IMG/VR virus record: IMGVR_UViG_3300045988_165705
Source: a virus
Strand: one strand, 5' to 3'
Length of the DNA: 64,000 bases
A program made the translations under genes and the position numbers. Positions 10,020 through 35,451 of the stretch are shown in pieces; within the stretch, counting starts at the first letter, position 1, and every line of letters starts with the position of its first letter. Under the pieces are notes generated by a model. The model saw only the letters and a list, made by a program, of their open reading frames with translations. It did no database searches and had not been told where the DNA came from.

Positions 10020-13000
10020 GTGGGCAATACACCGTCTATCATCTACATAGTGACCTGTCAAATGGCGTTACCAATATTGATTCGGTCACAAAATACGGAG
10101 AGTACATTGTAAAAGCCAAAGAATGCGGCATGAGTGCGATGGGCTTCTCCGAACACGGTTCTGTTTTTGAGTGGTGGCACAAGAAAAGTGCGATTGAAGC
10201 AGCTGGGATGAAGTATATCCATGCCGTTGAGTGCTATCTCACCACAACGCTTACAGAAAAAATCAGAGACAACTATCACTGCGTTCTTCTCGCTAAAAAC
10301 TACAATGGTTTTTTGGAGTTGAACAGTCTTGTGTCTAACAGTTTTTGTAGGAAAGACAACCATTTCTACTATGTTCCCCGCATTACTTTTGACGAGTTGT
10401 TCCATACATCGGATAACATCCTTGTCACTACCGCTTGTGTCGGTGGTGTGCTTGGGAAAGGCGATGAGCAGGTACAGCGGGTTTACCTTGATTTTTTGAC
10501 TCGCAACCGGCATCGCTGTTTTCTGGAAGTAGGACATCACATGGATGAAAAACAGATTTCCTATAACAAAAAGCTGCTTGCGTTAAGTCAGAAACTCACC
10601 ATTCCGCTGATAGCTGGAACAGATACTCATGTTTTGAATGAAGAGCACGAGAAAGGTCGCAGTATCTTACAGGCGTCCAAAAACATTTTCTTCGACGGCG
10701 AAGAGCGTTGGGACTTGAAGTTCAAAACTTATGATGAACTGGTCGCAGCCTATCGAGCACAAGGTTCGTTACCGGAAGCCGAGTATATGCAGGCCATTGA
10801 AAACACAAACCTGCTGGCAAATATGGTGGAACCTTTTGAGTTGGATAGAGGAACCAAGTATCCTCATATTTACGCAGAGCCGGAAAAGACTTTCCGAGAA
10901 AAAGTCCAGTCTGCTATGGAGACGCACCCCTATGCACTGAAGAACCATAGCAAAGAGGAGCTGGAGCGCGTTGTTGAAGAGGAGTTTGATGTCTACAAGG
11001 CGACAAAGTCTATTGACTTTATGCTCCTGCAAACATATCTGCGGGAATGGGAAAAGGGAAACGGCATCCAATGCGGTTACGGGAGAGGCTCCGTGTCCGG
11101 CAGTATGATTGCCTATCTGCTTGGCATTACGCAAATGGACAGTCTGCGGTTTGGGTTGAACTTCTTCCGCTTTATGAACCCCTCCCGTGTAACCAACGCA
11201 GATATTGATACGGACTACTCCGGTAAAGATAGAGATACGGTCAAGCGGTTCTTGCTTCGCGACAAGATGAACCTGCCAAGCATCCGTTCCGCAGAAATCA
11301 TTACCTTTAACACCATTGCGTTGAAGGGAGCTGTTCGAGATGTGTGCCGAGCCCTCTACAAAGACCGTCAGGACATCAACTATATTCAGGTTTCCAACCA
11401 CATCTGCAAAGAAGTCGAGACGCATGAAGAGGCAGTTCGCAAAAAGTATCCGGAGGTTTTCCGATATGTGGATATTGTCAACGGCACTATCGTTTCCATC
11501 GGAACCCACCCAAGCGGTGTGCTTATCAGCGACCTGCCCATTGAGCAGACCGTAGGCCTCTGCAGCGTATCTACATCTGAGTATCCGGTCTCCATGATTA
11601 ACATGAAAGAGCTGGACGACTTGATGTATGTCAAGCTGGATATCCTGGGGCTTGATAATATTGGTGTCATCAATGAGACTTGTAAAACTCTCGGCATTGA
11701 GCGGCTTACCCCCGACAACACAGATATGGAAGATATGAGCGTATGGAAAAGCATCCGTGATGATACAACGCTTATCTTCCAATGGGAGTCGGACAGCGCA
11801 CAGCACTACCTCCGGCAGTTTATGTCAGACAGCACACTGGAAACGGCTCGCTCCAAAATTCCGAACTTCTCCATGTTGAAATGGATGTCCTTTGGCAATG
11901 GGCTTCTCCGCCCTGCCTGCGCCAGTTTTCGTGACAGCGTTGCGAAGGGCGAGTTTTACGATAACGGTTTTGATGCACTGAATGAGTTTCTTTCCCCCGA
12001 AGCTGGACGCATCGCCATGCAGGAGACTATCATGCAGTTTCTCGTCAAGTTCTGCGGCTATTCTGCTGCAGAGTCTGATAATGTGCGCCGTGCTATCGCA
12101 AAGAAAAAGGGCACTGAGACATTGCTCCCTGAAATTGAAGAACGATTCGTTGCCTATTGTTCGGAACAATACAGCATGACTTCGGAACAATGCGAGAAAA
12201 TCATCAAGCCCTTCCTGCAAATCATCCTGGATGCTTCCGCCTATGGCTTCTCGTGGAACCATTCTGATGCCTATTCATCCATTGGGTATATATGCGGGTA
12301 TTTGCGTTACTACTACCCATTGGAGTTCCTTACGGCTGCGCTCAATATCTTTGGCGACAACATGGATAAGACTGCCGCCATTACCAACTACGCAACCAGT
12401 GTCGGTATTCGTGTCACACTACCAAAATGGGGATTGTCCAGAGGCGAGTATTTCTTCGACCGAGAAAAAAGAATCATCGCAAAGGGGCTTACCTCCATCA
12501 AGTATATGAGTGCCAACCTTGCCGATGAACTCTATGACCTTGCCAGAAACAAATACTCTTACTTCATGGACTTACTCAAGGATTTGGACGAAAAGACCAG
12601 TATCAACTCCAGACAGCTTGATATCCTCATCAAGCTTGATTTCTTCTCTGACTTTGGTAATCAGCGTGAACTTCTCCGCATGACAAGTCTGTTTTCCGAG
12701 ATGTTTAAGAAAGGGCAAGCCAAGCAGATACGGAAAAGCGATGTGGATGGAACGCCGTTGGAGGAAATCGTAAAGCGATATGCGGTGGGCGTGACCAAGT
12801 CGGGCGGCATCGCAAAGAGCTATACGCTTCTTGATATCGCATCTATCTTGCGAGAGGCGGAAACCGTCATCAAAGCCGCAGGAATGGATGATTTGAGCGA
12901 CCTTATCAAGGTGCGCAACTTCTATGATGTTATGGGCTACATCGGCTATGTGTCCGGCAACGAGGCCGACCGGCGCAAACTCTACATCACGGATATCAAG

Positions 13001-13204
13001 CCGCTGTACCGTAAGCGTGACAACAAGCAGTTCGGGTATAGCTTGTTCACAAAATCTATCGGCAGCGGCAAGGAGAGCCGGTTCACTGTTTTCAACAGAG
13101 TCTTTGATAAAGAGCCTGTCAAAGAGGGCGACATCATCTACTGCAAAGGCTATGAGAGAGACGGCGAGTATTACACGCTGACAGCGTATCAGCAGGTTTT
13201 TTGA
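10016..13204 (+). CDS. dnaE: DNA polymerase III alpha subunit (DnaE-type, PHP domain)
   Basis: PHP motif YHLHSDLSNG followed by GFSEHG. Catalytic region GRGSVSGSMIAYLLGITQMD followed by NADIDTDY. The ATG at 10016 overlaps the primase stop (ATGA). Confidence 0.9.
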   Translation: MSGQYTVYHLHSDLSNGVTNIDSVTKYGEYIVKAKECGMSAMGFSEHGSVFEWWHKKSAIEAAGMKYIHAVECYLTTTLTEKIRDNYHCVLLAKNYNGFLELNSLVSNSFCRKDNHFYYVPRITFDELFHTSDNILVTTACVGGVLGKGDEQVQRVYLDFLTRNRHRCFLEVGHHMDEKQISYNKKLLALSQKLTIPLIAGTDTHVLNEEHEKGRSILQASKNIFFDGEERWDLKFKTYDELVAAYRAQGSLPEAEYMQAIENTNLLANMVEPFELDRGTKYPHIYAEPEKTFREKVQSAMETHPYALKNHSKEELERVVEEEFDVYKATKSIDFMLLQTYLREWEKGNGIQCGYGRGSVSGSMIAYLLGITQMDSLRFGLNFFRFMNPSRVTNADIDTDYSGKDRDTVKRFLLRDKMNLPSIRSAEIITFNTIALKGAVRDVCRALYKDRQDINYIQVSNHICKEVETHEEAVRKKYPEVFRYVDIVNGTIVSIGTHPSGVLISDLPIEQTVGLCSVSTSEYPVSMINMKELDDLMYVKLDILGLDNIGVINETCKTLGIERLTPDNTDMEDMSVWKSIRDDTTLIFQWESDSAQHYLRQFMSDSTLETARSKIPNFSMLKWMSFGNGLLRPACASFRDSVAKGEFYDNGFDALNEFLSPEAGRIAMQETIMQFLVKFCGYSAAESDNVRRAIAKKKGTETLLPEIEERFVAYCSEQYSMTSEQCEKIIKPFLQIILDASAYGFSWNHSDAYSSIGYICGYLRYYYPLEFLTAALNIFGDNMDKTAAITNYATSVGIRVTLPKWGLSRGEYFFDREKRIIAKGLTSIKYMSANLADELYDLARNKYSYFMDLLKDLDEKTSINSRQLDILIKLDFFSDFGNQRELLRMTSLFSEMFKKGQAKQIRKSDVDGTPLEEIVKRYAVGVTKSGGIAKSYTLLDIASILREAETVIKAAGMDDLSDLIKVRNFYDVMGYIGYVSGNEADRRKLYITDIKPLYRKRDNKQFGYSLFTKSIGSGKESRFTVFNRVFDKEPVKEGDIIYCKGYERDGEYYTLTAYQQVF

Positions 13205-22683: not shown

Positions 22684-24198
22684 ATGGAAGATTTTATTTA
22701 CGCAAGACAGTCTGTTGATAAAGAAGACAGCATCTCTATTGAAAGCCAAATCGAGTTGTGCCTGCGGGAGGTAGGGAATAATCCGCACAGAGTATTTCGA
22801 GATAAAGGGTACAGCGGTAAAAATACAGAGCGTCCTGACTTTCAAGATATGATGGCCGCCGTTCGTGCTGGCGGCGCAAGGCGAATTATTGTGTACCGCC
22901 TTGACCGAATCAGCCGTTCCGTTCTTGACTTTGCAAATGTTATCAGTGAGCTGCAGAAGTACGGCGTTGAGTTCGTGTCTATTACAGAACGATTTGACAC
23001 CTCAACACCTATTGGCAAAGCAATGCTGATGATAGTCATGGTATTCGCCCAGCTTGAGCGCGAAACGATTCAACAGCGTGTCATGGATGCATACCGCTCA
23101 CGCAGTAGAAAAGGCTTCTACATGGGCGGCAGAGTCCCTTATGGGTTTGAACTGGAAAACACCGTTATGGAGGGCATCAAAACCTGTATGTATAAACCCA
23201 TTCCAGAGCAGATACAGGTCGTGCAGCTTATCTTTTTTCTGTATGCTATGCCGCAGGTTTCCTTTGCCGATGTGGTGCGCTACCTCAGCCAGAATGGAAT
23301 TAAAAATCCTAACGGTAAAAACTTCAGCCGTATGCGCATCCGAGATATTATTACAAATCCTGTGTACGCTAAAGCAGACGCTTCGATTTATGAATTCTTC
23401 CACGGGCAAGGAACCGAAATCATCAACGACATCTCTCAGTTCATTGGAACAAATGGAGCTTATCTGTACACAGGGAACAAAGCGGCCAAACGCAAGAGCA
23501 TTTCTCTTGACGGTCATGTCCTCGTTCTTGCTCCGCACGCAGGATGCATCGATGCTGATACATGGATTCGGTGCAGGCGCAAGTGCCTGAATGTGCGCCA
23601 GATAGCTAAGCCTGTGAAAGCAAAGAACACATGGCTTGCCGGTAAAATCAAGTGCATTGATTGTGGGCACGCCCTCTCCCTGAAATCCTATCCCCGTAAA
23701 CGCAGTGCAGACGCAAGGTACTACATCTGCAACAGCAAGTATGTTTCCGCATCCTGCGACGGCGTAGGCGCAATACAGGCCAGCGGAATCGAGGACATTG
23801 TCTTTGATGAAATGTCCCGCAAACTTAAAGAGTTCAACAAGCTTTCTTACAAGGAAAAGCACGGAGACCCCATTGAGCTTACCAAGCTGAAAATCCGTGC
23901 AGAAGAAATCGAAAAAGAAATCGCCACGCTTATAGACAAAATCGTATCTGCAAGCACAGCGACAATGGAATATATCAATGAGCGCATTGATGCACTCGAC
24001 GAAGAAAAGAAAACGGTAAAAGAAAAAATCGCTCAAATGTCAGCCGAAATGTATGACAGACAAAACATCGGCGTCATCAGCGATTACATGAGCAAATGGA
24101 ACGATATATCTATCGACGATAAATTAACCGTGGTAGATACCCTGATTGAATCTATTCATGTTGGACACGGCAAAATTAAAATTGCATGGAAAATCTGA
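22684..24198 (+). CDS. large serine recombinase (phage integrase)
   Basis: Resolvase catalytic N-terminus (IYARQSVDKEDSISIESQ), a recombinase domain, a zinc ribbon (CIDCGHAL followed by YYICNSK and C), and a C-terminal coiled coil. Confidence 0.93.
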   Translation: MEDFIYARQSVDKEDSISIESQIELCLREVGNNPHRVFRDKGYSGKNTERPDFQDMMAAVRAGGARRIIVYRLDRISRSVLDFANVISELQKYGVEFVSITERFDTSTPIGKAMLMIVMVFAQLERETIQQRVMDAYRSRSRKGFYMGGRVPYGFELENTVMEGIKTCMYKPIPEQIQVVQLIFFLYAMPQVSFADVVRYLSQNGIKNPNGKNFSRMRIRDIITNPVYAKADASIYEFFHGQGTEIINDISQFIGTNGAYLYTGNKAAKRKSISLDGHVLVLAPHAGCIDADTWIRCRRKCLNVRQIAKPVKAKNTWLAGKIKCIDCGHALSLKSYPRKRSADARYYICNSKYVSASCDGVGAIQASGIEDIVFDEMSRKLKEFNKLSYKEKHGDPIELTKLKIRAEEIEKEIATLIDKIVSASTATMEYINERIDALDEEKKTVKEKIAQMSAEMYDRQNIGVISDYMSKWNDISIDDKLTVVDTLIESIHVGHGKIKIAWKI

Positions 24199-24301
24199 TG
24201 TGGTAGTCTGATTGTTTTGCTTTAGCTATACAATCAACATACAACATCTTTTAAGCCTCGTGAAACTACTCAATCCGAGGCGCATACATAGAAATGTTCG
24301 T

Positions 24302-24340
24302 TTATAAGACCGCTGTTTAGATTAAACAACGCTGTTATAA
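24302..24340. other. candidate attP core (39-bp dyad-symmetric element)
   Basis: Imperfect palindrome CGCTGTTTA-GAT-TAAACAACG (24311-24331, 8 of 9 arm positions). It is flanked symmetrically by TTATAA at 24302-24307 and 24335-24340. It lies in the 330-bp non-coding gap next to the serine integrase. Confidence 0.3.
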
Positions 24341-24425
24341 GTGAACATTCAAAAGCTGAATTTATAATGGACAGTTAAACAACCTAAAAGCAAACGCACA
24401 CTTTGACCTCACAAATAAATAGCGC

Positions 24426-24478
24426 AAAAAAAATAGGGCAGGAACGGAGTAATTTCCGAACCTGCCCTAATTTATTTT
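24426..24478. terminator. bidirectional terminator between the convergent arms
   Basis: TAGGGCAGG (24434-24442) pairs with CCTGCCCTA (24461-24469). An A8 run lies upstream and ATTTATTTT downstream. Confidence 0.6.
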
Positions 24479-24530
24479 CGCACATTTCCTCAACTGAGAA
24501 TATTCACACCCACAAAATATCCTCGGATAA

Positions 24531-24920
24531 TTATTTGCCAAACATGACGATTGCACCGATGATACCACTCACAAGCAAAGTGCAGATACAGGTGATAACT
24601 GCAACTTTGATAGAGTTCACATTGCTGGCAATCTGTTTGTACGGTTTGTTCTCAGCCTCATTGACCTTTTCCGACAACTTACGCTCGGTTTCCTGCCAAG
24701 CTTTCGCCTGTGCATCGACTTTACTGTTTGTGTCGTCCACCTTCGTTTCAATGTTGCTGACACGCTGTGCAATAAGCTCAACAGAAGTAGCAATCTTGTA
24801 GATGGCTTTCTGCTCGCTTTGGATTTCCTTCAGCTCATTTTCCAGATTATCAATTCTATGCGTATTGGACTTACATCTCTGTTCCGTCTCAATGAGCATA
24901 ACAGTCTCCTGGTCAGTCAT
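24531..24920 (-). CDS. xhlA: XhlA-like membrane protein (lysis cassette)
   Basis: Coiled-coil N-terminus plus a single C-terminal TM (VAVITCICTLLVSGIIGAIVMF), as in PBSX XhlA. Adjacent to the holin and endolysin. Confidence 0.5.
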   Translation of the reverse strand: MTDQETVMLIETEQRCKSNTHRIDNLENELKEIQSEQKAIYKIATSVELIAQRVSNIETKVDDTNSKVDAQAKAWQETERKLSEKVNEAENKPYKQIASNVNSIKVAVITCICTLLVSGIIGAIVMFGK

Positions 24921-25334: not shown

Positions 25335-27551
25335 TTATACTCTGCTTGTATAATCAAGAGAAATCCATCCAGCGCCGCTTTTAAGCTTTCCCCAGGATTT
25401 GGCGCCAGTTCCGGCTTTCTCTTCGACGATGGTATAAACCCCACCGCCCTTAATCTGACCAGCCACGGCGTATCCCGTACCGGCTTCCTTGCGAATGTTC
25501 AGTACATCCGCCGTAACACGCACACGATACGGAACCGCAGAAGGTTTCTGTTCGGGCACAACCGGAGTCTTGCCTGCGTATTTGTCATAGAACTTCTGTC
25601 CGTATGCCGCACGCTTATTCTGGACTCCCGCACTCTGGTTCGCAGGACGCTCAAATTTCATCAGCACGGAATTGGATGCGGCAAGAATGGTCTTGGCGGA
25701 TTTCAAATCGGCAAAAACGCCCTTATAGCTCTCGCTCAATTCCTTGTACAGGAATTCAAGCTGCATACCCAAATCTCCAACAGACTTCTTCTTGCTCTGC
25801 GCAAAAGCAAGTAGTGCTTTCTTTCTTGTGTGATATGTCCACTGTGCCAAGCCGTAACCTGCGCTATCAGTCCCAAACTTTTTGTATGTGCCATTGTCAA
25901 CAGCAGCGGTATAGGATGCATCTGTATATCCAAGCCGCTTCTCATAGGCATTCTGTAGGTTGTCAGGGCGTAATCCAGACTCGGCATAGAGGTTGCCCAT
26001 CATACCTGCAACACCGTATTCGTTCCCAATCTTGCCAAGCAAGAAGTTCCAAATGATTTCCTCGTTTGTATTACCAGAAGGAGCGGACGGAGTAGACGGT
26101 ATTGTCGGCGTGGTCGGTTTTACGTTTGCCAGCGCAAGGTCAGAGACCTTGAACGGACTCATAATAGAGTTTTTACCGTCCTCACTTTTGTTGATAACAA
26201 CACGATTTCCACTTACAGAATGCACAATCCAGTTCTTTGCCCGAACCCAACCAGGAACTGACTGACCGGAGTAATACTGTGTTCCGATAATCTTGACAAC
26301 ATCTCCCGCCTTAAATGCGCTGGTTGTCGGCGTGGTCGGGTTTGTCGGCTGTGTAGGTGCAACGCTACCAGAGGTTTTCATTAGCGTAGCGACATCGGCA
26401 CGAGCCGTCGCCATAGACTTACCAAACTTCGGGAACCAGTGGTTGACATCACCGTGGTTAGAGCCAAGCCCAAGCGCATGACTGTCTGCATGGCATAAAA
26501 TTGTAGGAACGGATACACCATTCATATTCACTGTTCCGTTTGGGTCAATATTGAACATTTTGCAAAGGTATGCCGTAATTTCACAGGCCTCCTTGTAGAC
26601 CTTGTTGAAATATGTAGCATCGTTCAAACCGTCTTCACAAATCTCAAATTGAATCCAACCATTGTTACAGGAACCCTTGTTGCCAGAGCCGCAGCCCCAC
26701 GGGCGATAATTCCACGGCATAGTCTGTACTGTAGTGACAGTCCCGTCCGCCAATTTACCAATCCAGCAATTCAGGCCAGCCTGACGGTTGATATGGTTCC
26801 AGTCGTTTCGGTTCCCATTTTTGCCGAGAAGTGCCAAAAGCTCTGCTCTGTTTGCAGCATTATCATCCGGCTGGACATAGCGCCGCAAATTCGGATTGTT
26901 CGCACCGGTGCTGTGCCAAAGAACACCTTTAACGGTCATGGTGCTTGTCCCTTTGTAGCAAGTACTCTGGGTCATCATGCATTCCAACGGTCTATTCGTT
27001 GAACTGTATTTCATTTTTCCTCCACTTGTCGAGGGAACGGTAGTGACCGGTTTCTCATCTGAAACAGCCGGATTATAAATAAAGCCAAGGAACTTGTACG
27101 CAGCTCCTTGACCCCAGTTACCGTTTCCCTTTGTTCTTGTCTTGTTCCAAAACGGATTGGAACTGCCCCATCCGCTTTCGGATGTATAGACCTCCGTATC
27201 ACTTACGACCTTCTCAACAATAGCAACATGACCCGCCCCATCAGAGCCGTTCAGTGTAGCGCCTTTCTGCCAGACCATGCAGGCGCCAAGTTTCGGTGTC
27301 TGTCCTGTTTTAAGAGAGGTTCCCTTATACTGAATGAAGTTCTCTGCATTCACGGGTCTTAGGTACTTGCAGTATCCATACCCGCCAATTTCGTTAAATC
27401 GTCCGTAAGCATACCCTACACAGTTAGAAAGGACATCGCAGTCCTTATCTGTGGGGCTGCCTTTAATGGCGTCGGAGTAGCCGCCATTTGCTTTGGTTAT
27501 GTAATACTTATTACCAGCTTCCGGTTTGCTGGTTCGCATCTTAAACGCCAC
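25335..27551 (-). CDS. multi-domain endolysin: CHAP + amidase_2 + SH3 + lysozyme-like + SH3
   Basis: CHAP: SNCVGYAYGR followed by GHVAIVEKV. Amidase_2: GVLWHSTGANNP, WIQFEICED, ILCHADSHALGLGSNHGDVNHWF. SH3-like: FKAGDVVKIIGTQYYSG. Tail-lysozyme-like: GVAGMMGNLYAESGL followed by GYGLAQWT. A terminal SH3 is also present: YRVRVTADVLNIRKEAG. Confidence 0.88.
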   Translation of the reverse strand: MAFKMRTSKPEAGNKYYITKANGGYSDAIKGSPTDKDCDVLSNCVGYAYGRFNEIGGYGYCKYLRPVNAENFIQYKGTSLKTGQTPKLGACMVWQKGATLNGSDGAGHVAIVEKVVSDTEVYTSESGWGSSNPFWNKTRTKGNGNWGQGAAYKFLGFIYNPAVSDEKPVTTVPSTSGGKMKYSSTNRPLECMMTQSTCYKGTSTMTVKGVLWHSTGANNPNLRRYVQPDDNAANRAELLALLGKNGNRNDWNHINRQAGLNCWIGKLADGTVTTVQTMPWNYRPWGCGSGNKGSCNNGWIQFEICEDGLNDATYFNKVYKEACEITAYLCKMFNIDPNGTVNMNGVSVPTILCHADSHALGLGSNHGDVNHWFPKFGKSMATARADVATLMKTSGSVAPTQPTNPTTPTTSAFKAGDVVKIIGTQYYSGQSVPGWVRAKNWIVHSVSGNRVVINKSEDGKNSIMSPFKVSDLALANVKPTTPTIPSTPSAPSGNTNEEIIWNFLLGKIGNEYGVAGMMGNLYAESGLRPDNLQNAYEKRLGYTDASYTAAVDNGTYKKFGTDSAGYGLAQWTYHTRKKALLAFAQSKKKSVGDLGMQLEFLYKELSESYKGVFADLKSAKTILAASNSVLMKFERPANQSAGVQNKRAAYGQKFYDKYAGKTPVVPEQKPSAVPYRVRVTADVLNIRKEAGTGYAVAGQIKGGGVYTIVEEKAGTGAKSWGKLKSGAGWISLDYTSRV

Positions 27552-27572
27552 GATACATCACTCCTTTGTCCG

Positions 27573-28052
27573 TTATCCAACGGAGCCATTGTCGGCACCG
27601 TAATCATATACATTGACGGTTGCACCGTTTGTAAACGGCACTGGCTCGGTGCTATCAGCGCCAGCGGAAAGAATCTCATTCAACGACCCGTTATTCTCTT
27701 CGCCAGATATGCCAGCGTAGCGTTCTCTACGCAGCTTCACATTTTCGCTCTGCTTCTTCGCACAATACGCTTTTAGGCAATAAATCGCATAGATGAGAAC
27801 CTGTGCGGCAATGTCGGTGATAAGGACACCGAGATAGGTTAAATCATGAAGTACCCACATAGCCGCCATCGCATAAATCATTACGGCGTTAAATAACACG
27901 AAGAGGTAAATAGCAAGCAGCTTGCTTGTTTCGATGCGCTTGGTGTCATATTTCCGTTTTTCTTCGCGGAGTGATTGCTTGTACTGCTTTTGAACATTTT
28001 CCCTGCGAATCTCAGCCATCTTAAGCTGATACTCTCTTTTGGACATTCTCAT
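27573..28052 (-). CDS. membrane protein (2-3 TM), possible second holin/lysis regulator
   Basis: Hydrophobic spans LLAIYLFVLFNAVMIYAMAAMWVL and GVLITDIAAQVLIYAIYCL. Start set to the ATG at 28052 behind AAGGTGGTGA. Confidence 0.4.
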   Translation of the reverse strand: MRMSKREYQLKMAEIRRENVQKQYKQSLREEKRKYDTKRIETSKLLAIYLFVLFNAVMIYAMAAMWVLHDLTYLGVLITDIAAQVLIYAIYCLKAYCAKKQSENVKLRRERYAGISGEENNGSLNEILSAGADSTEPVPFTNGATVNVYDYGADNGSVG

Positions 28053-28147
28053 GTTAATCACCACCTTCTGTATAAAAGCCAAGTTTTATATGCCGTAAAT
28101 GCATTGTGGGAGCCTGCCGATGTGGCATGGCTCCCACTTTTTATTTC

Positions 28148-28291
28148 TTACACATTTCCACCGCTCAGGATTTCTTCTGCTTCCTCAGCTGTAATCCATT
28201 TGCCAACGGCATTCATCACCATCTGCCGGTTCCAAAGTCCACGGTCATAATAGCCTTTGACTTTTTCAAATCTTGCACTATGCTCATTCAT
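28148..28291 (-). CDS. xkdX: XkdX-family small phage protein
   Basis: FEKVKGYYDRGLWNRQMVMNAVGKWITAEEAEEI fits the XkdX pattern. The ATG at 28291 lies behind GAGGAGGAAGG. Confidence 0.7.
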   Translation of the reverse strand: MNEHSARFEKVKGYYDRGLWNRQMVMNAVGKWITAEEAEEILSGGNV

Positions 28292-28697
28292 TGACGCCTT
28301 CCTCCTCTTCCGCAGCAACATAGGTCGGGTCATCCACCGTATCATCGTAGACAGCTTCACCCTCAATGTCGCCTACGCTCATAGTCTGCGCTTCGGCTTG
28401 CTCTTCCATAGGCAGGTCATAGCCGGTCATCATGGAAAGGTAGTCCACATTTGCTGCATTCTGCGCGGCGACCTTATCCTGCTGCATCATATACTCACCG
28501 CTGGGAATCTCCTTGAAATCGACTTCGCCGTTCTCACTAATGGAGTTTCCAGCGAGATTATAGACGATACCGTTGATAGCAACGCCCTGTGCGCTCTCAT
28601 AGTCACACAGACCATAAGCGCCGTTCTCTTGCAAGCAGACCCAGTTCGGCTGCTCAACAAGCGCGAGCAAACTGCCGTTCTTCAGAAACTTTACCAT
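28284..28697 (-). CDS. hypothetical tail-associated protein (XkdW position)
   Basis: 137 aa. The ATG at 28697 lies 9 nt after AAGGAGG. The start lies 44 nt inside the 3' end of the RT gene. Confidence 0.45.
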   Translation of the reverse strand: MVKFLKNGSLLALVEQPNWVCLQENGAYGLCDYESAQGVAINGIVYNLAGNSISENGEVDFKEIPSGEYMMQQDKVAAQNAANVDYLSMMTGYDLPMEEQAEAQTMSVGDIEGEAVYDDTVDDPTYVAAEEEEGVNE

Positions 28698-29838
28698 GTC
28701 CTGAATCCTCCTTGTTCTTGAATAAACTGTTGTAGAAAGCATCCATCTTCCGCAAAACAAGCGTACTGTTTCCACGAATCATATGTCCGCGCCAGCTCTG
28801 ATAGGCGGTTTCTACATCTGTGATAGTGAACCTTCCTTCATCTATCCACCTTCGGAATATTCTGAGTTTCTTCCGCATCTTGACCGGTGACTTTCGGTTC
28901 ATCTTACGAATGACCGCACCGGTTTCATTCAGGAAGAACTTCGTTTTCAAGAATTTGACTCCCTTGCGCAGCGGCGCTATCTTTGTCTTCTTCTCGTTCA
29001 AAACAAATCCGTATTCCTTGCACTTCTTTCTGATTTCTTCCATGCAGTATTTCAGATATTCTCTGTCCTCATGTATCAGATAGAAGTCATCCATATACCT
29101 TCCGTAGTATTTGATGTGTAGTTGTTCTTTTATGAAGTGGTCAAGCGGGCTGGCAACCATCAGAGCATCAATCTGTGACACCTGACTGCCAAGTCCAAAA
29201 CCAACATCTCCGAAGTCTTCCATAAACTGACATGCTATACGGCGCACATCACCGTCGTGTATCCTGCGCTCCGCTTCCCTGTAGATAATAGCGTGCGGCG
29301 CACTGTTGAAGAAATCGGAAAAATCGCCTGTGAGAACACCGCCAGATTCTACACCTTCGATGCCAAACTTTCGATAGAATCTGTGCAAGTGCCTGTCCAG
29401 TCTGTCCATAGCAAAGTCAACGCCTTTGCCTTTCAAACTTGCGGCGTTGTCAAAAACAAATGAGTGAGAAAACACAGGGACGAGTATATTGTCGCAAAGA
29501 CATCTCTGTACTACGCGCTCGGAGATATGAACGCTCCGAATGTGCCGTAGTTTTCCGCGCTCAATTAGGTCAAAGTCATGGAAGCCACGACTCCTGAATT
29601 CCCGTCGTAGCAATGCATCATGCGTGCTGGCGGTATTCGTGGTGATGCGGCTCATATAACTTTGTGTGCTGTTCTTCCACATAACACCCTTGCAGCAGTT
29701 CTTACCTGCCTGATAAAGATGCTCATAGGAAAATACATCTTCATAGCGGCCAAAGCTTTCGCTGTAGGCAATCCTTTTCGCCTGACGAGCCGCCACTCTG
29801 CGCTGATATCTGATTTCATGTCTTTCCTTACTGTTCAT
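28654..29838 (-). CDS. DGR reverse transcriptase
   Basis: RT motifs include YGRYMDDFYLI (YxDD) and the DGR-typical [ILV]GxxxSQ motif (LGSQVSQ). It lies immediately downstream of the TR and avd. Confidence 0.9.
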   Translation of the reverse strand: MNSKERHEIRYQRRVAARQAKRIAYSESFGRYEDVFSYEHLYQAGKNCCKGVMWKNSTQSYMSRITTNTASTHDALLRREFRSRGFHDFDLIERGKLRHIRSVHISERVVQRCLCDNILVPVFSHSFVFDNAASLKGKGVDFAMDRLDRHLHRFYRKFGIEGVESGGVLTGDFSDFFNSAPHAIIYREAERRIHDGDVRRIACQFMEDFGDVGFGLGSQVSQIDALMVASPLDHFIKEQLHIKYYGRYMDDFYLIHEDREYLKYCMEEIRKKCKEYGFVLNEKKTKIAPLRKGVKFLKTKFFLNETGAVIRKMNRKSPVKMRKKLRIFRRWIDEGRFTITDVETAYQSWRGHMIRGNSTLVLRKMDAFYNSLFKNKEDSGHGKVSEERQFARAC

Positions 29839-30087
29839 ACCTCATCCCTTATATACAAGAAAATTGGGTGTGCCGTACAGTCTTATTGTAGGCGGGAATT
29901 CTAACTGCGTAGTCCGCACCATGAAACCGACTATTCCCGTATTCATCGGCCATGCAAGAAGCGTCATCCGGTGCATATCATCGACACACTGTTTCGAGCA
30001 TATTTGACTATGCTACAGGAACAAGCCTCCCTTCTGCAGAAGTACAAATTTCGCCACGAGGGTTACTTTGACTGACTTATAGACCTA

Positions 30088-30221
30088 CAGAAGCCGAAAG
30101 CGACGCCATAACTGTTGCTGGCGTTGTAACGGCTGGCGTTGCCGTTGCTGTAGACATAACAGAAAAAATTGCTGTCGCCAGAATTAGGAGAACGCTCCCA
30201 CCAGTTGTTAGCGGAGCCACC
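30088..30221 (-). repeat. DGR template repeat (TR)
   Basis: 134 bp aligning without gaps to 30934-31067 (offset 846). It carries 27 coding-strand adenines and 8 AAY Asn codons in the VR reading frame. Confidence 0.9.
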
Positions 30222-30277
30222 ACAGCAGCCCGAAAGCCCACAGAACACAACAAGACGAGACTTGACCTTAGAGTAAC

Positions 30278-30745
30278 TTAATCTGCCGGAATACTGTTAT
30301 CTTCGTATTCCTTGAATTTTTCCTTAAACCGTTTCCGGTCTGCTTTCTTGACGCCCGTAATAAGGTCGCGCTCCTTCTGGATGAGCCGACCCCATTCAAG
30401 CATGGCGTTAGGCAACCACTTAAACTCCGTCTTGAAATTCGGATTGTCCGAAACGATGTCATACATCAACTGAAGCTTATCATCTAAGCTGTTGAGCAAG
30501 CCGAAAGTGTAAGTAAGCTCATCACGCTTTAGCTGCGCTTCATGCAGATTGGTCGGCATCATTGATTCTGCCACACGTACATGGGTATCAATGTCTTCCA
30601 CAAGGTTTGCAATTTTCTGAACGACAATATAGGTATATCGTTTTGGAAACTTCACGCAATTCTTGATGGTAAACACCTGCAACTGCCGTGCGTTCTCGAC
30701 ATACTGGATTGCGCTCGTACTGCGCTTTGATTTATATACGGACAT
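30278..30745 (-). CDS. avd: accessory variability determinant (Avd, four-helix-bundle type)
   Basis: FTIKNCVKFPKRYTYIVVQKIANLVEDIDTHVRVAES fits the Avd/S23-IVS family pattern. It is positioned between the target and the TR. Confidence 0.75.
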   Translation of the reverse strand: MSVYKSKRSTSAIQYVENARQLQVFTIKNCVKFPKRYTYIVVQKIANLVEDIDTHVRVAESMMPTNLHEAQLKRDELTYTFGLLNSLDDKLQLMYDIVSDNPNFKTEFKWLPNAMLEWGRLIQKERDLITGVKKADRKRFKEKFKEYEDNSIPAD

Positions 30746-30834
30746 TCCTTCCTCCTTTTCTTCCGTTTACTTATGCGAATGGGATTCCCACACCTCTAAC
30801 CGCAAGGGGTGTACCCCGATACAATGCGGCATAC

Positions 30835-30873
30835 GGGCAGCCGTCTCCCCTGACCGGGGAGAGCGGGCTGCCC
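30835..30873 (-). promoter_or_regulatory. GC-rich hairpin downstream of VR (candidate DGR target-recognition structure or terminator)
   Basis: GGGCAGCC/GGCTGCCC outer stem and TCTCCCC/GGGGAGA inner stem, about 15 bp in total, with a 5-nt loop. It begins about 60 nt 3' of the VR end. Confidence 0.5.
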
Positions 30874-30926
30874 TTGTTTGCGCACTGGGCATTCTGCGTC
30901 AAAGCGAATGCGGCGGGGTGGAGGGG

Positions 30927-32936
30927 TTAGACGCAGAAGCCGAAAGCGACGCCACAACTGAAGCTGGCGAAGCAACGGCTGGCGGAGCCGGAGCTGTAGA
31001 CACAACAGAAAAAACCGCTGTCGCCAGAATAAGGAGAACGCTCCCACCAGTCGTTAGCGGAGCCACCTTTGTTCTTTACCTTCGAGTTGCCCGCCTTGTA
31101 ATAGGCGTACTGCGTTCCTTCGCCGGAGACGGAGTAGGTGGTGGAACCGAAGATTTCGATTTCTGCCAGCAGGAAGCAGTTGTCGGAGACTGTTTCTGTA
31201 CCGCTTGAAGAACCGCCGCCAGTGCCGGAAACTTTATTGACAGGCTTGATGGCCGTCTGCCATGCTGCAGGCATATATCCCTTCATGGTTGCCATCGTCG
31301 AGGTACGCATAGCACTGCTCTTCCAGCCGCCGCTGTTGGTGTTACTACTGTTCATCTGATAAGTCGTCGCAAACAGGTCATGCATCTGGAATGTGATACC
31401 CGCTTTTCCGGTCTTGGTAGCAGAGCCATACGCGGTAGATGTTGTCAGTGCATCATGGTTAAAGCCAATCACATCAAAGGCATAATTCGTACCATTCAAA
31501 GAAAGCGTCACCTGGTCGCCAACACTGACCTTGCGATGAACGCTGCCGAAATCAATGTACACCGTGGATGTCGCATTTGTGATGCTACTGTTGTTGGAGA
31601 TTGCCTCAGCAAACAGCGTTACATCCGATGCTGCTACGCCAGAAAGACCGGATGTATAATTCACGCCAGAAGTAGCCGCAGTGGAAGCCGTAGGTTTGAA
31701 GGATGCAGTCACAGCGCAGGTCTTGCTGGCAGGTGCGGTATGGTTTGTGCCAGCCGCAACACTGATGGTAATGGTCGCATTGCCAGTCGTGTCATTCACG
31801 CTGGAAACTGTAACAGTCGTGCCGGAAACGGTCACCTTTGCCACACCCGTATTGTTGGAACTCGCACTGACAACACCGTTACCAGCCCGCGTAACGGTAA
31901 TCGTTTTTGACCTATTGGAGGCATTCAGCGTAATGGAGGTAGGGCTAATGCTTAAAGAGCCAGCAGCCTTGCCGATTGACCACACAACTGTTTTTGCCGT
32001 GGTGCTCCCATCTGACCAACGATAATCCGCAGTCGGAGTAAATGTGGCATTGTAATTACCAGCGTTCGTTCCTGATGTGGCGCCTCCGATGGTAGTCTTG
32101 GTAGCACTGTAGTTGCTCCAAGTGGGAGACTGGCTGTTTCCGTTATAAGTCAGCGTGCCGCTTTGTGAAGGAACCGTAGCAATGGTAATACGATTCGCCT
32201 TACCCGTGGTTCGCTGAGAGGTGGATGTGTTGATACCGCCGTCCGTAGTCTCGGGATAGAAACTGATGTAGTATGTCGTTCCGTTTGTCAACCCTGTAAT
32301 GGACAAAGGCGTGGAAGCGTACTGGTTGCGGGTGGTGACCTTCAGTGTATATGCTGCGTCTTCATCATCCTTGCTCGTTGCATAACTGCCAGCCTTTACC
32401 ACGATGGTAGTACTCGCCCAGGTAGCCAGTGTAACGCCATCGGATGTGATAGTTGCTGCGGGGTCAGTCCACTTAACGGTCATCTTCCCATTACCGGCCT
32501 CTTGGGATGCTGTCATACCGGTTACATTCCAGCTTGAAATACCTGTGACTTGAACAGTGGGAGTTGCATTAAATACATTCTCTTCGCTGTCCGTGTAAGC
32601 ACCGGCTGTAGTGTAGGGGAAAAACTTATAGTAATAGGTCACGCCGTTGGAAAGACCGCTGTCGCAAAAATACGAAGTCTTGTAGGCATCTCGTGTTTTG
32701 CTGTCCAGCACGACCGTGCCGTCCCGGCGGCTCTTGGGGGCAGAGCCAGCCTTACGAACAAGCTGAGTGCCGCCCCATGCTGCAAGTGCAGCGCCTGACA
32801 CCACAATGTCAGAGGGGTCAGTCCACTTTACATATGTCTTGCCGGAAGCAACAAGCACATTGATATCGGAAACTGCACCAAGCGTCAAGCCACCGCCGGA
32901 GCCAGTTCCGCCCGGGAAGTTGGAAATAATAGGCAT
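30927..32936 (-). CDS. DGR target: tail-fibre/receptor-binding protein with C-terminal variable region
   Basis: 669 aa with two FN3-like repeats (VKWTDP followed by GVTYYYKFFPYT, then GTTYYISFYPET) and a Big_2-like segment. The C-terminus (NDWWERSPYSGDSGFFCCVYSSGSASRCFASFSCGVAFGFCV) is encoded by the VR. Confidence 0.85.
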   Translation of the reverse strand: MPIISNFPGGTGSGGGLTLGAVSDINVLVASGKTYVKWTDPSDIVVSGAALAAWGGTQLVRKAGSAPKSRRDGTVVLDSKTRDAYKTSYFCDSGLSNGVTYYYKFFPYTTAGAYTDSEENVFNATPTVQVTGISSWNVTGMTASQEAGNGKMTVKWTDPAATITSDGVTLATWASTTIVVKAGSYATSKDDEDAAYTLKVTTRNQYASTPLSITGLTNGTTYYISFYPETTDGGINTSTSQRTTGKANRITIATVPSQSGTLTYNGNSQSPTWSNYSATKTTIGGATSGTNAGNYNATFTPTADYRWSDGSTTAKTVVWSIGKAAGSLSISPTSITLNASNRSKTITVTRAGNGVVSASSNNTGVAKVTVSGTTVTVSSVNDTTGNATITISVAAGTNHTAPASKTCAVTASFKPTASTAATSGVNYTSGLSGVAASDVTLFAEAISNNSSITNATSTVYIDFGSVHRKVSVGDQVTLSLNGTNYAFDVIGFNHDALTTSTAYGSATKTGKAGITFQMHDLFATTYQMNSSNTNSGGWKSSAMRTSTMATMKGYMPAAWQTAIKPVNKVSGTGGGSSSGTETVSDNCFLLAEIEIFGSTTYSVSGEGTQYAYYKAGNSKVKNKGGSANDWWERSPYSGDSGFFCCVYSSGSASRCFASFSCGVAFGFCV
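30934..31067 (-). repeat. DGR variable repeat (VR)
   Basis: Encodes the last 45 codons of the target gene. It has 15 mismatches to the TR, all at TR adenines on the coding strand. The 3'-terminal 21 nt are identical to the TR. Confidence 0.9.
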
Positions 32937-32951
32937 ATAAATTGACCTCCT

Positions 32952-33353
32952 TTAGCCCAATAAGATAATGAGAACGGGAATATCACACGACGGCGTTTCC
33001 CCGTCAGAAGCAATCGTCAAAAAGCCGTCACCCTGGTTGCTGATATAAAGCCCAGCCGCACGGACGGTTTCAATCTGCAGCCCGGTAAGATTCTGCGCCG
33101 TACCGATTACGCCGTTTTGCTCGGGCGTCAATCCATCAATGGTAATGGTCTGGGTAGACACCGCACCATCCGTGTTCCACTGATTTGCAAGAAGCGTTGC
33201 CGTAATCGCACGGCTGAGAGCCGCCTTCTCGGCAAGGGCATTATCGATTTTTACCATGTTGGAATTATCGCTGCCATTCATCTTCTGCCGCCAGTCAAGG
33301 AAGCGGGTCGTACTGTCGTCTTCGAGATAGAGGTTATAGTTTGTTGTGTTCAT
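32952..33353 (-). CDS. small fibre-associated protein, paralogue A
   Basis: 133 aa. It shares GLTPEQNGVIG and the C-terminal CDIPVLIILLG with the neighbouring gene. Confidence 0.5.
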   Translation of the reverse strand: MNTTNYNLYLEDDSTTRFLDWRQKMNGSDNSNMVKIDNALAEKAALSRAITATLLANQWNTDGAVSTQTITIDGLTPEQNGVIGTAQNLTGLQIETVRAAGLYISNQGDGFLTIASDGETPSCDIPVLIILLG

Positions 33354-33368
33354 AAAAGCCTCCTCTCA

Positions 33369-33833
33369 TCAAGACAGCAGAATCACAGTAACGGGAATGT
33401 CACATTCTGGCACTGTTCCTTTTGCCGCAACCGTAATGGAGCCCGCGCTTTGCGCACAGACATACAGGCAGGCATCCGCAGCAGCGGTGAACTGCTCGTC
33501 AGTAATGCTCTGCGAAATACCAATCACACCATTCTGCTCTGTGCCAAGACCAGCAACGGCCAGTGTCTGCTGTTTGTTTGACCAATTGCTTGCTGTCAAT
33601 GTCGTATTGATAAATACGCTTGCGTCACACTTCCCTGCAAGCGCATTGTAGATGTCTTCATCATCAAACGGGAGTTGTGAGTAGGTCTTTGTCCCATCGC
33701 CAATCTTCCTGCGAACGCTACCGCTGGCCGTATCAACAATGATGATTTCCCCATCCAGAATGACAGGGTTGCTGTTCGTCCAGTTTGCGCTCGTATCTCG
33801 TTTGAGTCTGATTCGTGTGTTAAATTCAGCCAT
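33369..33833 (-). CDS. small fibre-associated protein, paralogue B, with Mtd_N/hyaluronidase-N-like N-terminus
   Basis: FNTRIRLKRDTSANWTNSNPVILDGEIIIVDT followed by KIGDGTKTYSQLPF. The C-terminus CDIPVTVILLS is paralogous to 32952-33353. Confidence 0.55.
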   Translation of the reverse strand: MAEFNTRIRLKRDTSANWTNSNPVILDGEIIIVDTASGSVRRKIGDGTKTYSQLPFDDEDIYNALAGKCDASVFINTTLTASNWSNKQQTLAVAGLGTEQNGVIGISQSITDEQFTAAADACLYVCAQSAGSITVAAKGTVPECDIPVTVILLS

Positions 33834-33907
33834 ATAGGTAGCCTCCTTTTAAGCAAAATCCCCGCCGTGCATGACACACGACGGGGTTGCTCTTATTTTA
33901 TCGGGTC

Positions 33908-35374
33908 TCAGATGTTCAAAGTGGCGCTGCCGCAGTTGAAGATGATATAACCGGAGGCCTGCTTCAACTCGGTAATGTCATGCTCATGGTTGCCAGCGGC
34001 CTTGCTGTCCCAGTCAGAAACCTTTGCAGCAGTGATGCCATCGAGAACGGTTTTATTGGCGTGTTCGTGCTGCTTCTCAACAGCACCATCCCACGCATCG
34101 ACCTTCGCCTGAGAGATACCGTCGAGGATGGTCTTGTTGGAATGCTCATGCTGCTTCTCGACAGCGCCATCCCACTTGGCCTTGTCGCCGGTGGCAATCT
34201 TGTCCAGTTCGGTCTTATTCGTATGGGTGTGCGCCTTGCCAATGGCGGTCTGCACATCAGCGTGAAGCTGAGACAGAGTCACGGAGCCTTCTGTCAGAGT
34301 AGCGGTCACCTTATGGTCAGCGCTGACATCAATCACAATCTGGTCGCCCACTTTGGAACCAGAAGTGACATACTCAATCAGGCTGTCAACATTGATGTAG
34401 ATGTCATCCTCGGTCGCATTGGCAAGAACCAGATGCAGGTAGGTGCCAGCCTCGCCCCATGCGCCAGCCGCATCCTTGGTCTCCACAGTGCCGGACTTCA
34501 CGACCATATCCTTCGGAATGTCGATGTTTACATCCAGACTGGTTGCAGTCTGCTTGATGTTGTAACGCTTTGCGACGCCTTCGGGTGTGGAAGCAGTCAC
34601 AGTCACGGTGTAGTCGGTCTGCGCAGGAATAGCACCGACCTTCTCATCCACATAGCCCACAACGGTAGTGGCAGTCGCACCGGCGGGCAGAGAACCAACC
34701 AGTTCTTCCAGTGCATCCACATCTGCCTGAGCGTCCGTACCGGCCTTCTTGGCCGCAGCAATGGCATCGTCCTTACCGTCGGCATAGGTCTTGGCAGACT
34801 GCAGCGCCGTACTCGCCGTACCGGCAGCATCGAAAGCGCCCTCATCCTTATAAGCAGCGGTGCCCAGACCATGCACCTTCACATCGGCACCGTTGAACTT
34901 AACAGTACCGTTAGCGCCACCCTCAACCAGCGTGTAAACAGTCTCATCGGGGATGGTGATAGTGCTCGCCAGAGACCATGTAGCGCTGCCCTTTGCCTGA
35001 GAATACAGGTGGAATTTGCGGGCATTGTCCGCATCGACCTCCAGCTTGTACTGGGTGTCAGTGTCCTGAATCTCGCCGGAGATGTAGTCAGACAAGCCGG
35101 TAATCTCATTGGCGGAATAAGTCGGCTTATTCTCAGCCTTTGCCCAGTCGTACACATCGGCAGCCAGACCGGCGGCGAACTGCAGCTGGCTGAACTTAGA
35201 GGAACCGTCACCAGCCTTAAACAGGATGGCAGGCTCCTTTGCCACAGCGCCGGTAGCAGCAGGTACGACGACAACCGCAAGCTCACCTGCCAGCAACACA
35301 GGGTCTTTTTCGACCCAGTTGGCATAGGTATCATACTTCAGGGAAATACGAGTATTGAAAGTAGTTGTAGCCAT
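33908..35374 (-). CDS. tail fibre protein with C-terminal HxH repeats
   Basis: N-terminus FNTRISLKYDTYANWVEKDPVLLAGE. Three 27-aa repeats plus a partial fourth containing HTH/HEH (QHEHSNKTILDGISQAKVDAWDGAVEK). Start set to the ATG at 35374. Confidence 0.7.
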   Translation of the reverse strand: MATTTFNTRISLKYDTYANWVEKDPVLLAGELAVVVVPAATGAVAKEPAILFKAGDGSSKFSQLQFAAGLAADVYDWAKAENKPTYSANEITGLSDYISGEIQDTDTQYKLEVDADNARKFHLYSQAKGSATWSLASTITIPDETVYTLVEGGANGTVKFNGADVKVHGLGTAAYKDEGAFDAAGTASTALQSAKTYADGKDDAIAAAKKAGTDAQADVDALEELVGSLPAGATATTVVGYVDEKVGAIPAQTDYTVTVTASTPEGVAKRYNIKQTATSLDVNIDIPKDMVVKSGTVETKDAAGAWGEAGTYLHLVLANATEDDIYINVDSLIEYVTSGSKVGDQIVIDVSADHKVTATLTEGSVTLSQLHADVQTAIGKAHTHTNKTELDKIATGDKAKWDGAVEKQHEHSNKTILDGISQAKVDAWDGAVEKQHEHANKTVLDGITAAKVSDWDSKAAGNHEHDITELKQASGYIIFNCGSATLNI

Positions 35375-35451
35375 ATATATCATTCACCCTTCTTTATTGT
35401 TTTAGAGATAGGGCGGGAGCGTATAACTCCCGCCCTTAACGATGTGCTTGA

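Follow-up and report, generated by a model that had tools for sequence, protein, structure and literature searches.

Does the minus-strand locus between the tail-fibre and lysis genes of the viral genome IMGVR_UViG_3300045988_165705 hold a complete diversity-generating retroelement (DGR), and in what state is its template? A first-pass annotation of the window (the whole 64,000-nt stretch analysed) had placed such an element within the tail-fibre module, a reading now supported by the variable repeats of natural copies, the structural relatives of the reverse transcriptase (RT) and an Rfam match in the spacer. We regard the region as very probably a complete Bordetella-phage-type DGR, composed of target with variable repeat (VR), avd, template repeat (TR), spacer RNA and RT, in which the window TR is a derived form and the VR was later rewritten from it. 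The element is of an ordinary kind; its unusual part is the adenine-depleted template of the window copy. Its carrier, a large siphovirus-like phage or prophage of human-gut Clostridia, is uncultured, and megablast against 50,697 phage records returned almost no DNA similarity for it.

On the minus strand, the DUF6273 target is followed by a GC-rich hairpin, an Avd candidate, the TR, an RT-2 spacer RNA and the RT, with tail-fibre genes on one side and lysis genes on the other:

32952–35383, minus strand: upstream tail-fibre-like genes encoding 133, 154 (with Mtd_N) and 491 aa, assigned by Pfam Mtd_N and PHROG tail-fibre families
30927–32936, minus strand: DGR target gene, 669 aa, with two N-terminal tandem repeats of ~85 aa and a C-terminal DUF6273 domain carrying the VR
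30934–31067, minus strand: VR, encoding the last 44–45 codons of the target; 15 of 15 mismatches at TR adenines
30278–30745, minus strand: Avd candidate, 155 aa, pI 9.06, between target and TR
30088–30221, minus strand: TR, a derived form with 27 adenines against the lineage's 38, as judged from the ungapped VR alignment and outgroup polarity
29848–30080, minus strand: spacer RNA RT-2 (RF03077), 131.3 bits (gathering score 40), model positions 1–222 of 222
28654–29838, minus strand: DGR RT, 394 aa, RVT_1, phrog_1423 at E = 1.5e-80
25335–28291, minus strand: downstream lysis cassette bounding the DGR, from gene calls (XkdX-like, membrane holin-like and 738-aa endolysin)

Further tail-fibre-like, Dit, minor tail and tape-measure genes lie farther upstream, beyond the 32952–35383 block. 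The coordinates and strand of the target, Avd-candidate and RT reading frames agree with those first proposed.

This anatomy is observed directly, as are the adenine-only differences between the repeats. TR and VR align over 134 nt without a gap, as had been claimed; their homology ends abruptly on either side, and no second VR occurs within the 64-kb window. A recount returned the same 15 mismatches, all at coding-strand adenines of the TR, of which 27 are present (hypergeometric chance 6.4e-13). The list of altered Asn codons also stands, seven of the eight AAY codons being altered in the VR so as to encode D, Y, G, S, S, F and F. For Tyr, the change to Cys holds at three of four codons, but their description as three TAT and one TAC does not: the TR has two TAT and two TAC codons, and those changed are two TAT and one TAC. 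No stop codon can be reached by A-to-N changes from either version of the TR, that of the window or that of the lineage.

DGR RTs are defined by [LIV]GxxxSQ in motif 4 and a YxDD catalytic motif. In this RT the two read LGSQVSQ (residue 216) and YMDD (residue 248), both of which had been read from the sequence at the outset. Its best solved relative is 8UB7_A, the RT of a Bordetella DGR RNP (E = 6e-19), in an alignment spanning [I/L]GSxxSQ and YMDD. Its identity to Brt, the RT of BPP-1, is 26% (E = 2e-23), with R98 aligned to Brt R74, and the nearest named RT is that of Roseburia phage Shimadzu (43%). Models of group II, retron and DRT RTs all score far under their cut-offs.

The prototype DGR of BPP-1 (mtd-avd-TR-brt) resembles the window element in collinear order and strand logic from tail fibre through lysis genes, in a TR that is also 134 nt long, in adenine-only TR/VR differences, in the GC-rich repeat end and in an inverted repeat after the VR, besides the RT motifs. 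The two differ in several respects: the target domain here is DUF6273 and not Mtd (hhalign probability <1%), the Avd proteins share no sequence similarity, the spacer RNA is RT-2 (RF03077) here and Phage_DGR (RF03022) there, 60 nt separate hairpin and VR here but in BPP-1 they are adjacent, and the host is a gut Firmicute rather than Bordetella. The RT-2 match is full-length at 131 bits, directly upstream of the RT gene, in the position equivalent to the BPP-1 'Sp'/Phage_DGR RNA; as a control, the TR-brt gap of BPP-1 yields RF03022. Eight covarying pairs are present in our own alignment of the spacer RNA.

The protein encoded between target and TR is a candidate Avd, to judge from its predicted fold, charge and position. 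An AF2 model (pLDDT 84) has four long helices, and resembles most closely the folds of 2GSC (TM 0.82), of 2RLD and, in the DGR RNP 8UB7, of the Avd chains, at weak Foldseek E-values (0.08–0.7) that are usual for helical bundles. At the sequence level it matches nothing in Pfam, NCBIfam or PDB, nor BPP-1 Avd by hhalign.

The target protein matches phrog_37900 and contains DUF6273 at residues 524–663 (Pfam E = 1.5e-14, 54.6 bits, cut-off 23.5). The copies of its internal repeat share 44% identity (E = 4e-20). The FN3/Big_2 label first given to the N-terminal part was not upheld, as Pfam gives DUF6273 alone even at E ≤ 1, and a search of solved structures with this part gave no significant match. 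For the fold of the target domain, neither a PDB profile search nor hhalign against Mtd (probability <1%) found a match, and an AF2 model has a pLDDT of 41, too low to judge the fold. DUF6273 is described as C-type-lectin-like in the literature (PMC11792537, PMC10743442), by analogy with which the domain here would adopt a C-type-lectin fold.

Similar targets occur in other gut phages. In the Faecalibacterium (pro)phages Taranis, Roos, Pioen, Lelie and CP11 (PMC11792537), likewise from human-gut Clostridia, the target is a DUF6273 protein, and the VR occupies the C-terminal end of the domain; their RTs are ~37% identical to the window RT, and the C-terminus of the target is 36–39% identical to the DGR targets of Taranis, Roos and Pioen. 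They belong to another phage lineage, however, and the window DGR has a single target. The tentaclins of gut phages nd4 and nd12 (PMC10743442) also combine a DGR-diversified DUF6273/C-type-lectin-like domain with beta-sandwich repeats, and the nd12 RT is 39.5% identical. Here, in contrast, domain and VR occupy the extreme C-terminus; a tentaclin requires an N-terminal DUF6273 followed by Ig-like domains, and with the reversed topology we rejected membership in that group.

The gene closes the tail-fibre block directly before the lysis genes, as mtd does in BPP-1, and this position suggests that its product forms the receptor-binding tip. The same DGR could instead diversify an accessory adhesin resembling tentaclins or Hoc, which would bind mucus, glycans or non-host surfaces and would not be the host-receptor-binding fibre. 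[quoted passage not shown] Given the shared position with mtd, we hold this possible but rather unlikely.

Diversification of this DGR is active in nature. The first-pass annotation had proposed looking for VR polymorphism at TR adenines, and independent gut-metagenome copies provide it: 20 human-gut metagenome copies with identical RT or Avd, together with the window, give 19 non-redundant VRs, among which 37 of the 38 TR-adenine positions vary, compared with 3 of the 96 other positions. This adenine-restricted hypervariation is a direct observation; 38–66% of adenines are substituted per VR, and in sister lineages, too, hypervariation is confined to TR-adenine positions.

Against this background, the window TR stands apart. 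It differs from 18 standard copies at 11 positions, every one an A-to-N change, with 11 of the lineage's 38 adenines lost and 27 remaining:

30093–30176, minus strand: 11 derived A-to-N TR sites, at plus-strand coordinates 30176, 30167, 30166, 30158, 30152, 30133, 30131, 30130, 30128, 30110 and 30093

The last of these, repeat position 129, is the lost IMH* discriminator, the base otherwise separating TR from VR at the 3′ end, and is now the VR-type C. In outgroups with 77–83% RT identity all 11 sites are still A, and position 129 is A in their TRs but C in their VRs; the window TR is therefore, on sequence comparison, a derived form of the lineage template. The template had at first been taken as pristine, which is not the case: its four Tyr codons and several others are earlier A-to-N products fixed in the TR.

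The eroded TR comes from one sample (ERZ27229723), in which contig L001 is identical to the window, and public scans gave no further copies. An artefact of assembly, with TR and VR reads joined into a chimera, or ordinary point mutation might be invoked for a single MEGAHIT-style contig, the more so as TR and VR are repeats and the assemblies of relatives break or collapse at the VR (L024, L037–L043). Such a chimera would, however, need at least seven switches between TR-type and VR-type sequence, some of them between neighbouring bases, and the longest identical TR/VR run in the window is 21 nt. As for ordinary mutation, the chance of 11 random substitutions all striking A is about 1e-6, and the adjacent 1,434 nt of spacer and RT are unchanged, being identical between the window and ten copies. 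We consider both origins very improbable.

The window VR contains all 10 derived bases, with a chance of ~1.5e-6 had it been templated by the standard TR, and relative to the eroded TR it is changed at 15 of the 27 remaining adenines (56%), a normal rate. Most likely, a diversified VR was copied back non-reciprocally into the TR and a new round of diversification followed. In the step that changed the TR, only 10 of 37 adenines (27%) were altered, a smaller share than in every normal VR (whole repeat, P = 0.001; positions 46–128, P = 0.03), and the simple version in which a whole VR was copied into the TR consequently fits imperfectly.

The loss of 11 of 38 adenines and of the sole TR/VR difference inside the 3′ repeat end could be expected of a decaying relic, which ceased to work once its template had been overwritten and whose 15 TR/VR differences are historical; the eroded TR is confined to a single sample, so that the population evidence for activity concerns the standard template. 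Yet copies with clearly varying VRs share the RT, spacer RNA and Avd at 100% identity, and the VR, while sharing the derived bases, departs from the TR at remaining adenines only and at the normal rate. Adjacent discordant sites (64/65, 94/95 and 112/113) are moreover hard to obtain from one patchy repair but easy from a later homing round. A relic is thus improbable, and we favour back-copy followed by renewed diversification.

Two elements near the 3′ end of the VR may bear on homing:

30930–30954, minus strand: IMH-like VR 3′ end, GGCGTCGC then TTTCGGCTTCTG, continuing into the VR-specific flank
30835–30873, minus strand: GC-rich inverted repeat with 16–18 bp arms and a 5-nt loop, 60 nt past the VR, identified by folding

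Throughout the lineage the repeat ends in GGCGTCGC, then A129 in the TR or C129 in the VR, and then divergent flanks; position 129 (30939 in the VR) is C in every sampled VR. The lineage as a whole thereby has an IMH and a non-identical IMH*. In the window, the final 21 nt of TR and VR are identical and have 62% GC compared with 48% for the window, in agreement with the GC-rich, IMH-like end first described; TR/VR discrimination is left to the downstream flank. Identical TR and VR 3′ ends occur in some DGRs (Wu et al., PMC5758913).

The inverted repeat is kept in lineages with 77–83% RT identity, with compensatory changes at 3–4 pairs. It lacks a T-tract, and the call for a terminator-like element was negative. 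A GC-rich inverted repeat downstream of the IMH is an optional DGR component, found in 34% of DGRs. The one here may enhance homing as a hairpin or cruciform, or may form a hairpin at the 3′ end of the mRNA; at 60 nt from the VR it may be just the latter, as BPP-1 needs its hairpin within about 24 nt (PMC3240598).

By analogy with BPP-1, cDNA synthesis, priming and homing would proceed as follows. A transcript covering avd, TR and spacer, possibly extending into RT, would be produced, and the folded RT-2 spacer would recruit the RT-Avd complex and prime cDNA near the TR 3′ end. The RT would misincorporate opposite template adenines, and the mutagenised cDNA would take the place of the VR sequence that precedes the GC-rich, IMH-like end. 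As many as ~20 codons would thereby be recoded in the C-terminal DUF6273 domain of this tail-associated protein. In the window, VR-to-TR back-copy would have introduced the 11 A-to-N changes, including the VR-type C129, after which the VR would have been rewritten from the eroded TR and would have come to differ anew at 15 of the 27 adenines still present.

With the eroded TR, the reachable peptide repertoire falls from ~10^21.8 to ~10^16.0. The spacer has a bearing on the RNA family: the RT-10 motif is located in the TR-RT gap of BPP-1, and Weinberg et al. (2017) proposed a DGR role for RT-10 only, the other RT motifs being merely speculation (PMC5737381). RT-2 lies between the TR and RT of the window and likewise in four outgroup lineages. 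This placement, flanked by a verified TR and the associated RT across the five related lineages, gives RT-2 a concrete DGR context.

The element in the window shows the testable features that define a diversity-generating retroelement (DGR). All three of its genes were found as open reading frames at the positions and on the strand that the first-pass annotation had assigned to them, and a conserved hairpin lies between two of them:

30927–32936, minus strand: target gene, ORF of 669 aa
30278–30745, minus strand: gene of the Avd candidate, ORF of 155 aa
28654–29838, minus strand: reverse transcriptase (RT) gene, ORF of 394 aa
30835–30873: GC-rich hairpin 60 nt past the variable repeat, conserved with compensatory changes in lineages with 77–83% RT identity

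The template repeat (TR, 30088–30221) and the variable repeat (VR, 30934–31067) form a single direct repeat of 89% identity, recovered by both a repeat finder and MAFFT as the ungapped 134-nt alignment proposed earlier; the similarity stops sharply at both repeat borders. A script count returned the same 15 mismatches, all opposite coding-strand adenines of the TR (27 in total; P = 6.4e-13). The reading of the codons held in that 7 of 8 AAY and 3 of 4 TAY codons differ in frame, but the mention of three TAT codons was wrong, the TR containing two TAT and two TAC. Neither a full-length scan nor one with 40-nt tiles that allowed for changes at A positions revealed a further VR or target in the window.

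The cassette belongs to architecture B (avd–TR–RT with the target upstream), the commonest among DGRs (PMC5758913), and is collinear with that of BPP-1, including its 134-nt TR. The hairpin has no T-tract, and the BPP-1 element lies closer to the VR than the hairpin does here (PMC3240598). The target protein is not a tentaclin, since its domain order is reversed.

Upstream on the same strand are genes for the tape measure, minor tail and Dit proteins and several tail-fibre-like proteins (one with an Mtd_N domain), and downstream of the DGR are XkdX-like, holin-like and endolysin genes. The other arm encodes DnaB, Pol III alpha, NrdD and a serine recombinase; the gene content of both arms therefore identifies the entire window as phage or prophage. 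At the DNA level, megablast against 50,697 phage records yielded nothing beyond a 198-nt match at 78%. Two small paralogous fibre-like genes adjoin the target upstream (32952–33353 and 33369–33833, minus strand; 133 and 154 aa); their products have a common CDIPV..ILL C-terminus, and the 154-aa one carries the Mtd_N domain. The endolysin (25335–27551, minus strand) is unusually large, 738 aa with CHAP, Amidase_2, Phage_lysozyme2 and SH3_3 domains, and some sister copies have instead a 692-aa endolysin with SPOR/CW_7 wall-binding domains. Past the lysis module, the DNA varies among near-identical copies (22684–24920 in the window; approximately 11500–13185 in metagenome loci L002–L010): a serine recombinase is found in the window and in loci L004, L013 and L020, and unrelated bacterial genes (sigma-70, ankyrin, relaxase, HGD-D, HSP70/UvrD, SDH) in other copies. 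This suggests that some copies are excised and others integrated, or that several sites are used for integration.

The FN3/Big_2 repeats ascribed to the target in the first-pass annotation were not recovered: Pfam gave no match to them at E ≤ 1, and solved structures returned only non-significant Fab light chains (E~0.04). The sole Pfam domain is DUF6273 (residues 524–663), and the N-terminal part contains a tandem repeat, 44% identical. The C-terminal 210 aa share 36–39% identity with the DGR targets of Faecalibacterium phages Taranis, Roos and Pioen, in which the VR likewise lies at the C-terminus of DUF6273 (PMC11792537); the target family is an already-known DGR substrate in gut phages. 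A diverse profile built from an exhaustive protein search matched no solved structure and showed no similarity to Mtd; the target is not an Mtd homologue. An AF2 model of the domain, computed from a shallow alignment, was unusable (pLDDT 41). Clustered at 90% identity, the matches to the same 210 aa form 4,918 clusters, mostly about 80% identical to the query, a number of "distinct" proteins inflated because of VR hypervariation; at 50% identity the family still comprises 5,577 clusters. Some giant proteins contain up to 12 copies of this C-terminal domain.

The RT matches RVT_1 and phrog_1423 (E=1.5e-80). Its closest solved relative is the RT of a DGR ribonucleoprotein (8UB7 chain A, E=6e-19), in an alignment spanning both LGSQVSQ (IGSLTSQ in Brt) and YMDD; identity to BPP-1 Brt is 26%. 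Scores against group II intron, retron and defence-RT models were far under the cut-offs. The nearest named RT is that of Roseburia phage Shimadzu (43%), and a partial, 99% identical RT is present in the "Clostridium sp. CAG:413" MAG. The RT gene shares 44 nt at its 3′ end with the start of the next called gene (28654–28697), the latter encoding an acidic protein of 137 aa with no family match.

The 155-aa protein had no sequence match in Pfam, NCBIfam, PADLOC or PDB (phmmer and profile searches), nor in hhalign against BPP-1 Avd. Its AlphaFold model is a bundle of four long helices (pLDDT 84), with 2GSC (TM 0.82), 2RLD and the Avd chains of 8UB7 as top fold matches, all with weak E-values; its pI is 9.06. 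Known avd genes show very little conservation and encode basic proteins (Wu et al., PMC5758913). We accept the protein as the Avd candidate because of its predicted four-helix fold, basic pI and position.

Rfam RF03077, "RT-2 RNA", matches the 249-nt TR–RT gap over its full length (131 bits; gathering score, 40), and four related lineages have RT-2 in the same place. The positive control, the TR–brt gap of BPP-1, matches RF03022, "Phage_DGR". In BPP-1, the folded spacer recruits RT–Avd, and a spacer adenine primes cDNA synthesis in IMH* (summarized in PMC12875486). RT-10 alone had been linked to a DGR, with speculation about the remaining RT motifs (Weinberg et al., PMC5737381); RT-2, whose connection with DGRs was speculation in that work, gains a concrete DGR context here. 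In a lineage with 80% RT identity (L026:6370–7751, also L027 and L028), an additional RT gene (386 aa), with its own full-length RT-2 RNA ahead of it, lies downstream of the XkdX/holin genes.

Many human-gut metagenome contigs encode RT and Avd candidate proteins identical to those of the window, and 20 such loci were retrieved; one of them, L001, the source contig of the window, equals it over 13,185 nt. Compared with its own TR, each locus has VR differences at adenines, barring four exceptions: a boundary base, a singleton, a copied TR polymorphism and an in-frame 3-nt deletion. Among 19 non-redundant VRs, variable sites comprise 37 of 38 TR-adenine positions versus 3 of 96 others, with 38–66% of adenines substituted per VR, and sister lineages display the same adenine-restricted pattern. 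Confinement of polymorphism to TR adenines, proposed earlier as a population test, is thus seen across natural copies, using assemblies instead of reads, and shows that the element diversifies in nature. Dozens of metagenomic copies with identical RT and Avd and different VRs constitute a very clean natural data set of adenine-restricted diversification in the wild.

The deletion is in L004 (4771–4911), opposite an AAC codon of the TR, giving a target of 669 rather than 670 aa; the remaining differences of this VR are all at TR adenines. Such a deletion is a known by-product of DGR homing. Many sister-lineage contigs (L037–L043) start or stop within a few bases of the VR, as expected from assembly fragmentation caused by many VR variants per sample.

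The TR of the window is itself altered. A standard TR with 38–39 adenines is carried by 18 of the 19 other copies compared, the 19th being L001. The window TR differs from the standard one at 11 positions (46, 55, 56, 64, 70, 89, 91, 92, 94, 112 and 129), each an A in the standard TR (chance for 11 substitutions, 1e-6). Ten standard-TR copies match the window at every base of the adjoining 1,434 nt (spacer and RT), which excludes ordinary divergence. Outgroups (77–83% RT identity) keep A at all 11 sites, so the window state is derived; the converse, an ancestral window TR and a derived 38-A template, was rejected for the opposite polarity. Elsewhere the TR does not vary within a lineage; in a sister lineage, for instance, 11 of 11 copies share the same one. 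At position 129, all other copies and lineages have A in the TR and C in the VR; this IMH*/IMH difference is fixed and never passes from one repeat to the other. In the window TR the base is the VR-type C. At the remaining 10 derived sites, the window VR carries the same base as the window TR (chance ~1.5e-6 if templated by the standard TR), and of the 27 adenines left, 15 differ between the two repeats, these being their only differences. The four "Tyr" codons of the first-pass annotation are former Asn codons. Reachable peptides fall from ~10^21.8 with the standard TR to ~10^16.0, and stop codons are reachable from neither version.

We consider it about an even bet that information here flowed in reverse: a diversified VR, or a copy of it, was written into the TR, fixing 10 former Asn-codon adenines and erasing the IMH* discriminator, and the eroded TR still served as donor. 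Diversified VR sequence would first have been copied into the TR, and a normal round of homing from the eroded TR would have followed. This two-step account is the simplest history, and C129 argues more for DNA gene conversion than for cDNA mis-homing. The first step would have changed only 27% of adenines, fewer than in any ordinary VR (whole repeat, P=0.001; positions 46–128, P=0.03). The opposite fates of the neighbouring sites 64/65, 94/95 and 112/113 make it unlikely that the present VR was the source of a single patchy (heteroduplex) repair. The eroded TR was seen in one sample only, ENA ERZ27229723, on contig k119_72646; neither its exact sequence nor an A-degenerate pattern matched elsewhere in IMG/VR and JGI metagenomes, and 0 of 94 VR peptides from homologous targets are reachable from it. 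That the window TR is an assembly chimera of the two repeats is very improbable: such a chimera would need at least seven switches, some at neighbouring bases, whereas the longest run common to TR and VR is 21 nt.

Two further loci bear altered repeats. In L023 (3616–3749 and 2823–2956), T replaces A at TR position 16 and the VR has T too, a second example, here at a single site, of the VR inheriting a base that had replaced a TR adenine. A sister-lineage copy (L024:1726–4000; Logan SRR5625878) has no avd gene and a single VR/TR chimera, VR-like at its 5′ and TR-like at its 3′ side, 227 nt before the RT; this is either VR–TR recombination deleting avd or assembly collapse of the repeat.

As a DGR, the element is one more gut-phage case of a well-known system diversifying the known domain DUF6273; only the eroded template and the DGR context of RT-2 would be new to specialists. 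No description of natural TR erosion was found in the literature searched, which is not proof of absence. The window offers a natural example, of a rare kind, of adenine mutagenesis in the template itself, which is supposed to be protected; 11 sites are affected, one of them the sole within-repeat base separating donor from recipient, and the case bears on the upkeep of directionality (IMH versus IMH*) and on the evolution and decay of DGR templates. Should such reverse copying prove real and recurrent, strict invariance would not hold for TRs: a DGR could "assimilate" a variant that had succeeded, so that later searches narrow around it (~10^22 to 10^16 peptides), and the same process would be a route of DGR decay.
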